From assembly GCA_023245565.1 (NCBI GenBank), contig JAHFKB010000002.1, positions 2,534 through 44,879 on the forward strand: a stretch of 42,346 nt of DNA, given 5' to 3'. The first letter of the stretch is position 1. Each line of letters starts with the position of its first letter. The stretch comes from an archaeon. GTDB taxonomy: Archaea > Nanobdellota > Nanobdellia > SCGC-AAA011-G17 > GW2011-AR18. The position numbers and the translations under genes are program-made. Shown here piece by piece: positions 8,798 through 20,276 of the stretch. The notes under the pieces are model-generated. The model had not been told where the DNA came from. It saw nothing but the letters and a program-made list of their open reading frames with translations, and searched no databases.

Positions 8798-8953
8798 CGC
8801 CAAGGGTGGGACTATCAAACATTTACAGGCGTCAAGCCATTATTCTTGATAGTGCTTTTAAATGGTTTTTGAACCCACAAGTCTGTGAAGACGCAGGATA
8901 TCTGCAACCATTGTATAGCAATCCTGTGCCATACCAGGTTAGGCGACCTTGGC
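8798..8953 (-). tRNA. tRNA-Ser(GCU) interrupted by two introns (anticodon loop ~16 nt; T-loop ~56 nt)
   Basis: Reverse strand reads GCCAAGG-TC-GCCT-AACCTGGTA-TGGC-A-CAGGA-TTGCTA[16 nt]A-TCCTG. This is followed by a long variable arm (GTCT-TCAC-AGAC), then GTGGG-TTCAAA..[~56 nt]..T-CCCAC, then CCTTGGC-G. Acceptor, anticodon and T stems all pair perfectly. Discriminator G and the long variable arm fit Ser. Confidence 0.65.
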
Positions 8954-8972
8954 GTAGTTTTGAGTATTTTAT

Positions 8973-8984
8973 TTCTTTTATAAA
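8973..8984 (-). promoter_or_regulatory. Candidate TATA box for the tRNA-Ser gene
   Basis: TTTTATAAAAGA on the reverse strand, about 20-30 nt upstream of the predicted tRNA 5' end. Confidence 0.3.
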
Positions 8985-9032
8985 ACTTATCTTAGTAATA
9001 AAATATATTAAATAAAGAATATAAACAAAATT

Positions 9033-11703: not shown

Positions 11704-12141
11704 ATGAAGACTAAAGTAGAAGAAATAACTTTAACATCTAAAGGAAATAGTATAGAAGGTGCTTTTTCTAAAATTGCTTTATCAATGTTTGAGATAGTTA
11801 TTAATCCTTCAGATATAGAATTAAAAGTTACAAAAACTGTTATTATAAGATCTAGAGATCTAAAGAATTTATTATTTCAATTTTTAAAAAGATTATTTGA
11901 TCTTGCAAATGGAGAATTATTTGTTTTGGGTATAGTTAAACAAATTACTATAGAACAAATTTCTAGTGAATATTTATTAAATTCTGTATTAATTGGTGAT
12001 AAAATGCAAGCTAATTATGAAGTAAAGGACATAGTTAAACAAATTACTGATAGAAATATTATTGTTAAAGAAGAAAGAGATGGTGTTTTAACTCAAATTA
12101 ATATTGTGGTTGAAAGAAGGAATATAAAAGATGAAGTATAA
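11704..12141 (+). CDS. Divergent archease-like protein lacking the N-terminal HTAD motif
   Basis: Aligns by eye with the downstream archease (SIEGAFSKIALSMFEIV vs TLEKVFENSALALEEIM; LKNLLFQFLKRLF vs EESLLYDFLSELI). It has EEITL where the archease has HTADI. It overlaps the next gene by 11 nt. Confidence 0.5.
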   Translation: MKTKVEEITLTSKGNSIEGAFSKIALSMFEIVINPSDIELKVTKTVIIRSRDLKNLLFQFLKRLFDLANGELFVLGIVKQITIEQISSEYLLNSVLIGDKMQANYEVKDIVKQITDRNIIVKEERDGVLTQINIVVERRNIKDEV

Positions 12142-12553
12142 ATTTTTTCCACATACTGCTGATATTATTTTTGAAGGTTATGGTAAAACTTTAGAAAAAG
12201 TTTTTGAAAATTCTGCATTAGCATTAGAAGAAATTATGGTTGATTTAGAAAGTTTAGATAAAAAAGAAACTTATCAATTAGTTTTATTTTCTAAAGATGA
12301 AGAAAGTTTGCTTTATGATTTTTTATCTGAACTTATTTTTATAAAAGATACAGAAGGTTTATTGTTTAAAGAATTTGATATTGTGATATTACATAAAAAT
12401 AAACAATATGAATTGATTGCTAAATGTGAAGGCGATAATATAAATTCTGATAAACAAAAATTAGGAGATGATGCGAAAGCAATAACTTTACATGAATTTT
12501 CATTAAAAAAAGAAAAAGGTAAATGGACTTCAAGGGTTTTAGTTGATATTTAA
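12131..12553 (+). CDS. Archease
   Basis: N-terminal FPHTADIIFEGYGKTLEKVFENSALAL and C-terminal KAITLHEFSL blocks typical of archease. 140 aa. Confidence 0.8.
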   Translation: MKYKFFPHTADIIFEGYGKTLEKVFENSALALEEIMVDLESLDKKETYQLVLFSKDEESLLYDFLSELIFIKDTEGLLFKEFDIVILHKNKQYELIAKCEGDNINSDKQKLGDDAKAITLHEFSLKKEKGKWTSRVLVDI

Positions 12554-19999: not shown

Positions 20000-20136
20000 A
20001 TAATTAAAATAATTTTAAAAGTTATATAGTTTTTGTAATAAATTTAAAATAAAAACATTTATATTGTCTATTATTAATATTGCTTTTTCTAATAAAAGAA
20101 AGGAGAGAAGATGTGTTGAATATAGTAATTAAAAAA

Positions 20137-20227
20137 TGCGCGAGCCGGGATTTGAACCCGGGTCTCAACGTTGGCAACGTCGAATAAAAGTCAACCATAT
20201 GGTTTCTAACCACTATACTACTCGCGC
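20137..20227 (-). tRNA. tRNA-Gly(GCC) with a ~18-nt insertion in or next to the D-arm
   Basis: Reverse strand reads GCGCGAG-TA-GTAT-[32 nt]-CGACG-TTGCCAA-CGTTG-AGAC-CCGGG-TTCAAAT-CCCGG-CTCGCGC-A. All stems pair except around the D-arm, where about 18 extra nt sit, including the palindrome AACCATATGGTT. Confidence 0.65.
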
Positions 20228-20276
20228 ATAATTAGAATTTTTAAATTTAATGTTGTTTTTAAATATTGCTATAGAA

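Follow-up and report, generated by a model that had tools for sequence, protein, structure and literature searches.

A Candidatus Woesearchaeota tRNA-Ser(GCU) gene with introns at positions 37/38 and 59/60

Anatomy and context of the tRNA-Ser(GCU) gene

The stretch of DNA analyzed here (the window; 42,346 nt, contig C50:2534-44879) comes from an 896-kb assembly of 54 contigs, rated 88% complete and with a GC content of 25.7%. On the minus strand at 8798-8953, it carries a 156-nt tRNA-Ser(GCU) gene with a 16-nt intron at position 37/38 and a 56-nt intron at position 59/60, within the T-loop (Table 1). The neighboring genes are archaeal, encoding EF-1alpha, ribosomal protein S10, and a peroxiredoxin, and the downstream peroxiredoxin gene is syntenic in a same-genus relative. 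The minus strand of the gene reads GCCAAGG-TC-GCCT-AACCTGGTA-TGGC-A-CAGGA-TTGCTA-(TACAATGGTTGCAGAT)-A-TCCTG-CGTCTTCACAGACTT-GTGGG-TTCAAA-(56 nt)-T-CCCAC-CCTTGGC-G, and CCA is not encoded at its 3′ end.

All of the stems described in an earlier note on this DNA pair, namely the acceptor stem GCCAAGG/CCTTGGC, the anticodon stem CAGGA/TCCTG, the variable-arm hairpin GTCT-TCAC-AGAC, and the T-stem GTGGG/CCCAC. Its assignment to serine also holds, with anticodon GCU in the loop TT-GCT-A, a discriminator G (G73), and the 15-nt variable arm with a 4-bp stem that characterizes class-II tRNA-Ser. The 16 extra nucleotides that the note placed after position 37 lie directly before A38 and constitute a canonical intron, and the 63 nt that it counted between the T-stem halves resolve into TTCAAA, the 56-nt T-loop intron, and a single T.

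Table 1. Features of the tRNA-Ser(GCU) locus and associated genes in the window
Feature	Position	Strand	Basis or remark
TATA-like box TTTATAAA	8977..8984	-	Putative archaeal promoter, at -31 to -24 from tRNA position 1
Exon 1, 38 nt: acceptor 5′ strand, D-arm, anticodon stem 5′ strand, loop to position 37	8916..8953	-	BLAST of mature positions 1-38, 100%
Anticodon GCT, in exon 1	8917-8919	-	ARAGORN calls the spliced product Ser(GCT)
Intron 1, 16 nt, TACAATGGTTGCAGAT, canonical 37/38	8900..8915	-	BHB drawn from sequence
Intron 1 BHB central helix, UUGC (U32-U33-G34-C35) with GCAG	8918-8921 with 8902-8905	-	4/4 pairs
Exon 2, 32 nt: position 38, anticodon stem 3′ strand, 15-nt variable arm, T-stem 5′ strand, T-loop 54-59 (TTCAAA)	8868..8899	-	BLAST of mature positions 39-70, 100%
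Intron 2, 56 nt, at 59/60 in T-loop	8812..8867	-	BHB counts in relatives; excision restores UUCAAAU
Intron 2 BHB central helix, UUCA (U54-U55-C56-A57) with UGAU	8870-8873 with 8814-8817	-	3 pairs plus U54-U mismatch
Intron 2 BHB inner helix, ACCAUUUA with UAAAUGUU	8859-8866 with 8818-8825	-	7/8 paired
5′ arm ACUAUCAA of hairpin within intron 2	8846..8853	-	93% paired, 11 distinct sequences
3′ arm UUGAUAGU of intron-2 hairpin	8811..8818	-	Overlaps BHB central helix, 3′ bulge, and U60
Exon 3, 14 nt: U60, T-stem 3′ strand CCCAC, acceptor 3′ strand CCTTGGC, discriminator G	8798..8811	-	BLAST of mature positions 71-84, 100%
69-aa ORF	8806-9015	+	No Pfam match; missing from same-genus relative
First archease gene	11704-12141	+	PF01951, E = 3e-15
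Second archease gene	12131-12553	+	PF01951, E = 2e-39
Candidate tRNA-Ser(TGA), 93 nt	20136-20228	-	ARAGORN; Rfam 53 bits

The unspliced gene was detected neither by ARAGORN, with or without its intron mode, nor by Rfam cmscan, whether run at the gathering score or, for a 551-nt slice, with a cutoff of E <= 10. ARAGORN reports only two tRNAs in the window, both other than the Ser(GCU) gene. Removal of the 16-nt and 56-nt inserts leaves an 84-nt sequence that ARAGORN calls as tRNA-Ser(GCT), a call that holds for every split of the T-loop with TT or more retained 5′ of the removed insert. The length of this product matches the ~84-nt tRNA that had been foreseen, and over its full length it is 77-86% identical to four intron-less orthologues. 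Folding of the full 156-mer gave z = -3.27 against 200 shuffles. The plus-strand ORF across the locus, previously dismissed as an artefact, has no Pfam match and no counterpart in a same-genus relative, which upholds that dismissal.

An intact intron-less Ser(GCU) gene elsewhere had been named as a finding that would speak against this locus. BLAST of the mature sequence against the 896-kb, 88%-complete assembly recovered the three exon pieces at this locus only and no other copy of Ser(GCU); at that completeness, a second copy could sit in the missing part. Among the Ser codons of five window genes, AGT and AGC together make up 20 of 60. The TATA-like box begins at -31 to -35 in 16 of 18 orthologous loci at the family level. 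We conclude that the tRNA-Ser(GCU) gene is real and that its splicing is almost certain.

As annotation, the gene fills a Ser(AGY) decoding gap in a genome with only 22-24 tRNAs detectable by standard tools, and it shows why DPANN tRNA sets appear incomplete. Kaneta et al. 2018 (PMC5829648) described predicted DPANN tRNA sets as incomplete and stated that they “warrant manual curation.” We applied a home-made scan, based on BHB removal, to 131 GC-rich islands of the genome; it recovered this gene and a tRNA-Pro, and most islands went unexplained. An Rfam scan of the 20 largest GC-rich islands found only a 5S rRNA. Within C6:19348-19645, a tRNA-Pro(TGG) emerges once ~22-27 nt are removed from the D-loop. 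Two further loci have tRNA-like features: L088 (C48:1-331) resembles a three-intron tRNA with anticodon CAT and has its own 31-nt intron at 59/60, and L091 (C53:1416-1743) is tRNA-like and has several introns, with AGCCCCG/CGGGGCU as its acceptor and CCA encoded in the gene.

Intron positions across Woesearchaeota orthologues

A DNA search of 40 relatives together with a pattern scan of contigs gave 69 loci, from which we extracted 48 distinct Woesearchaeota Ser(GCU) genes. These contain between zero and three introns, at five positions (20/21, 29/30, 37/38, 59/60, and 68/69). The layout seen in the window, 37/38 plus 59/60, is present in 19 of the 48, while 13 have the 37/38 intron alone and eight have no intron. 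The three-intron layouts are 37/38 + 59/60 + 68/69 (three genes), 20/21 + 37/38 + 59/60 (two genes), and 29/30 + 37/38 + 59/60 (one gene), and the remaining two genes have 59/60 alone. The anticodon intron is therefore absent in 10 distinct orthologues. An insert at exactly 59/60 is found in 27 of the 48, and its excision gives UUCAAAU, with the exceptions of UCCAAAU in one genome and CUCAAAU in another; the T-loop of the intron-less orthologues is TTCAAAT. Using the Rfam tRNA model, two intron-less orthologues scored 58.8 and 56.8 bits and a one-intron orthologue scored 44.1 bits, and the two- and three-intron orthologues were missed.

In both same-genus genomes there is a third intron not seen in the window, of 22 nt at 20/21 in G001 and of 30 nt at 68/69 in G002. 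Intron content varies within one genus, and gain or loss is therefore recent. The Ser(GCU) orthologues offer a compact natural series, differing in layout even within that genus, which could help to date when introns were gained and lost.

The extra introns of relatives fit a BHB by eye. Among L004 (G001, 1458-1635), L016, and L017, those at 20/21 are 22-27 nt long, with central helix CCUG/CAGG and inner helix CUUAU/AUAAG, and the one at 29/30 is 33 nt with GCGC/GCGU. The 30-nt intron at 68/69 interrupts the acceptor 3′ strand in L005 (G002, 1509-1691), and is also found in L014 and L042; its central helix, CACC/GGUG, draws on nucleotides 63-66, which form the T-stem 3′ strand. The 68/69 BHB cannot coexist with the T-stem, nor consequently with the T-loop BHB, which implies ordered splicing in these genes. 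In a different Woesearchaeota Ser(GCU) group (L031, L035, L037, L038, L043, L044, L048, L050, L056, L064, and others), the anticodon introns are 36-52 nt long and have in common the motif CAGA..CCUACAAUA(C/U)C.

Positions 20/21, 29/30, and 59/60 are known archaeal intron positions, as reviewed by Yoshihisa 2014 (PMC4090602). Both position 59/60 and tRNAs with several introns have been published before, and archaea are known to have genes of this type, which are common in this lineage, such that two introns at published positions would not surprise a specialist. Of secondary interest are the series of zero to three introns at five positions in a single isoacceptor, the single loop-less EndA, and the covarying hairpin that excludes the splicing fold. 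As far as the review summarizes the work of Marck & Grosjean 2003 and Sugahara et al. 2008, tRNA genes of Crenarchaeota, especially Thermoproteales, are alike in their intron positions, in having several introns per gene, and in being missed by standard finders (via PMC4090602). The enzyme in that group is (alpha-beta)2 with a crenarchaeal loop, whereas here there is one alpha-type EndA gene in a mesophilic DPANN Woesearchaeota with 26% GC. Nucleomorph and Cyanidioschyzon merolae tRNAs, in the review's account of Kawach 2005 and Soma 2013 (via PMC4090602), are similar in having an interrupted T-arm and up to three introns per gene. They are, however, eukaryotic and unrelated by descent, with a heterotetrameric Sen-type endonuclease and some introns of only 3 nt in that account.

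In the literature searched, two papers name Woesearchaeota alongside tRNA introns; just one of them, Kaneta et al. 2018 (PMC5829648), examines tRNA genes of this lineage, using tRNAscan-SE on one Woesearchaeota genome. Neither this family of Ser(GCU) introns, nor its polymorphism across five positions, nor the competing hairpin is described in that study. Our genome resembles the DPANN genomes with disrupted tRNAs described there in belonging to the same superphylum and in its incomplete tRNA set (22-24 here), but differs in that its EndA has no insertion at the site of the Nanoarchaeum equitans Lys-rich loop.

Bulge-helix-bulge motifs and splicing enzymes

In archaeal bulge-helix-bulge (BHB) motifs, each bulge lies 3′ of its own strand of a 4-bp helix and cleavage follows the second of the three bulge nucleotides; we checked this geometry against the canonical 37/38 case. 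A BHB can be drawn at both junctions of the tRNA-Ser(GCU) gene, as the earlier note had asked, and both are conserved with covariation. In the intron 1 motif, the central helix is fully paired (Table 1), the bulges are UA|U and AU|A, and the 5-bp anticodon stem serves as the outer helix. The inner helix is only 2 bp, leaving the motif slightly relaxed. Of 38 related genes that have an anticodon intron, 33 have G[CU][AG][AG] as the four nucleotides before its last two, opposite and complementary to UUGC.

For intron 2, the T-stem provides a 5-bp outer helix, the bulges are AA|A (A58-A59|A) and AG|U (AG|U60), and the central helix, which has a U54-U mismatch in the window, is paired 4/4 in 12 of 25 relatives. 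We counted pairs across 25 distinct genes with a T-loop intron, aligned without gaps and anchored at the ends, and found 85.9% of the cells of the T-loop BHB to be paired. Sliding the 3′ partners by 1-3 columns lowered this to 36.5-55.5%, and 0 of 500 shuffles reached the observed value. Changes on both sides were seen at 8/8 inner-helix pairs and 3/5 T-stem pairs, in sequences that are related and in alignments anchored on the proposed structure. The central helix also has a compensatory change in one relative, with T-loop UCCA and UGGA replacing UUCA/UGAN. Loci L018 and L059 have a T-loop of UCCAAAU, placing a C at position 55, with UGGA compensating in the intron strand. Position 55 is almost universally U in tRNAs (pseudouridine 55). 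We place the splice site of the T-loop intron at 59/60 because the spliced product aligns end to end with intron-less orthologues, and excision there restores their UUCAAAU loop.

These data bear on whether the locus could be a decaying tRNA pseudogene, with junk for inserts and Ser AGY codons read by a gene outside the assembly. The lack of a call from standard tRNA finders and the 88% completeness of the assembly are compatible with decay, but every stem is intact, the promoter box is conserved, and the two-intron layout is kept across many genera with compensatory changes in stems and intron helices. Furthermore, no other copy is present in the 88%-complete assembly, and the interrupted form also occurs in relatives that are 98-100% complete (e.g., G002 and G004). 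We regard a pseudogene as exceedingly improbable.

The endonuclease EndA is encoded by a single 204-aa ORF on contig C36 (14273-14887) that contains both domains (PF01974, 94 bits; PF02778, 53 bits) and the Tyr-His-Lys triad. Among solved structures, the N. equitans alpha subunit is its best match (3IEY_A, E = 1.4e-36), but that subunit has six additional residues (KKGKRSER region), located between catalytic Tyr and His, that are missing here. Pairwise alignment with the Methanocaldococcus jannaschii alpha4 EndA (1A79) is free of gaps across the catalytic Tyr-His segment and the rest of the C-terminal domain. The catalytic domain has one match in the genome and one each in 24 of 25 relatives, some of them rated 100% complete, in frames of 177-267 aa; one relative has none. 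With a single alpha-type gene, EndA is likely a homotetramer.

Kaneta et al. 2018 (PMC5829648) reported DPANN alpha4-type EndA with an “L3” loop and more tRNA disruption, and Fujishima 2011 (PMC3239211) described the ARMAN-2 epsilon2 EndA and the N. equitans Lys-rich insertion. From the latter (PMC3239211) we infer that the N. equitans insertion site is L3. We found no second subunit gene and no fused three-unit protein, and in alignments to 1A79 and 3IEY_A, no Lys-bearing L1/CSL, L2/ASL, or L3 loop. The earlier note had argued that a gene of this size implies reliance on a relaxed-specificity splicing endonuclease. This was not borne out: there is a single alpha-type EndA without known specificity loops, and both BHBs are near-canonical, so a relaxed-specificity enzyme may be unneeded. 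The Ser(GCU) series could test how a single-subunit EndA without such loops handles non-canonical introns.

An RtcB gene was identified on contig C32 (567 bits). Archease is a cofactor of the RtcB tRNA ligase, and two tandem, overlapping archease genes lie in the window (Table 1). This pair is 3 kb from the tRNA-Ser(GCU) gene.

At this locus and in this genome we find bulges with a central helix, flanking helices, a cloverleaf upon excision, and genes for EndA and an RtcB-type ligase, as for a BHB intron. We consider it highly probable that this is a functional Ser(GCU) gene, the only one found, of the AT-rich (26% GC), ~0.9 Mb genome of an uncultured Candidatus Woesearchaeota (DPANN) archaeon, and that its two introns are spliced via BHBs by EndA with ligation by RtcB. 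Transcription directed by the TATA box ~30 nt upstream would yield a 156-nt precursor. Two BHBs would form in it, one in the anticodon loop around the 16-nt intron at 37/38, and one around the 56-nt intron at 59/60, with the T-stem for its outer helix and nucleotides 54-57 of the T-loop supplying one central-helix strand. EndA, from its single alpha-type gene and probably homotetrameric, would cut after the second nucleotide of each 3-nt bulge. RtcB and archease would then join the exons of 38, 32, and 14 nt to give a class-II tRNA of 84 nt whose T-loop is UUCAAAU, and CCA would be added after ligation. Points against this explanation are the intron 2 central helix of three pairs plus a U-U mismatch, the 2-bp inner helix of intron 1, and a hairpin conformer predicted to be 4.6 kcal/mol more stable. 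A further one is that EndA is without the insertion loops that the literature ties to cleavage of non-canonical introns (PMC5829648).

A conserved hairpin that overlaps the intron 2 splicing fold

The earlier note had also described a helix within the T-loop insert (ACTATCAA/TTGATAGT). This helix is present and covaries, but it competes with the BHB and is not part of it. Across 11 distinct sequences of this intron family, the hairpin ACUAUCAA/UUGAUAGU is 93.2% paired, with double changes at 3/8 pairs, compared to at most 47% in slid controls. Its 3′ arm shares nucleotides with the central helix, the 3′ bulge, and U60, and therefore the hairpin and the BHB cannot coexist. ViennaRNA gave -44.7 kcal/mol for the cloverleaf with the hairpin versus -40.1 kcal/mol for the cloverleaf with both BHBs, the predicted difference being 4.6 kcal/mol. 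The unconstrained minimum was -50.9 kcal/mol, with the D-arm broken.

We considered whether the gene could be real while its T-loop insert leaves by a route other than a BHB at 59/60, either in another register (a 4-bp UCAA/UUGA helix, one nucleotide over) or through trimming around the hairpin. UUCAAA can indeed pair with UUUGAU in more than one register (candidates 86-142 and 87-141), and the predicted stability of the covarying hairpin exceeds that of the BHB fold. Against another register, only 59/60 yields a 7-nt loop identical to that of the intron-less orthologues, in 27/27 genes with a T-loop insert, and the shifted pairing would leave a 9-nt loop. As for trimming, no archaeal enzyme is known to excise a hairpin-bearing insert that has no BHB (reviewed in PMC4090602). 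Exit by such a route is very unlikely in our view, and we retain BHB splicing at 59/60 as the preferred reading.

A more tentative proposal, which we consider rather doubtful, is that the hairpin is itself under selection and gives the precursor or the excised intron a function of its own. By hiding the 3′ splice site together with one of the two central-helix strands of the BHB, it may force a fold switch before EndA can cut, delaying the BHB and so timing or ordering splicing; alternatively, it may mark a stable small RNA, linear or circular, derived from the intron. If the fold switch were true, the hairpin would be a built-in timer or ordering device for multi-intron splicing. The pairing and the compensatory changes at 3/8 pairs in the 11 distinct sequences point in this direction, as do the mutual exclusivity with the BHB and the predicted persistence of the hairpin in the excised linear intron (-10.3 kcal/mol). 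The sequences are related, however, and so represent few independent events, the hairpin loop is poorly conserved, and no Rfam family matches the hairpin. It is also missing from T-loop introns that do not have the GCAC motif, including other families at the same site, in which the best intron 8-mer pairs 5-7/8 with the intron 3′ end.

We also considered a C/D-box reading of the intron, but inspection by eye revealed neither a conserved C box nor a conserved D box. A pseudoknot of the hairpin with the inner BHB helix was rejected on geometry, by reasoning rather than computation, since a 5-nt linker would have to span ~16 stacked base pairs. As a check for transposition, we searched the genome for a second copy of the 56-nt intron and found none; the matches were AT-rich, attributable to chance, no longer than 21 nt, and never below E = 0.03. 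Finally, L061 and L069 contain a separate family of T-loop introns of ~75 nt, also at 59/60, in which two distant genes have the long element CAGATCTCCCAGATCTGGTAGGGGGATTCACGGTCACTCGTGTTCCCGTTCATAAGA in common.
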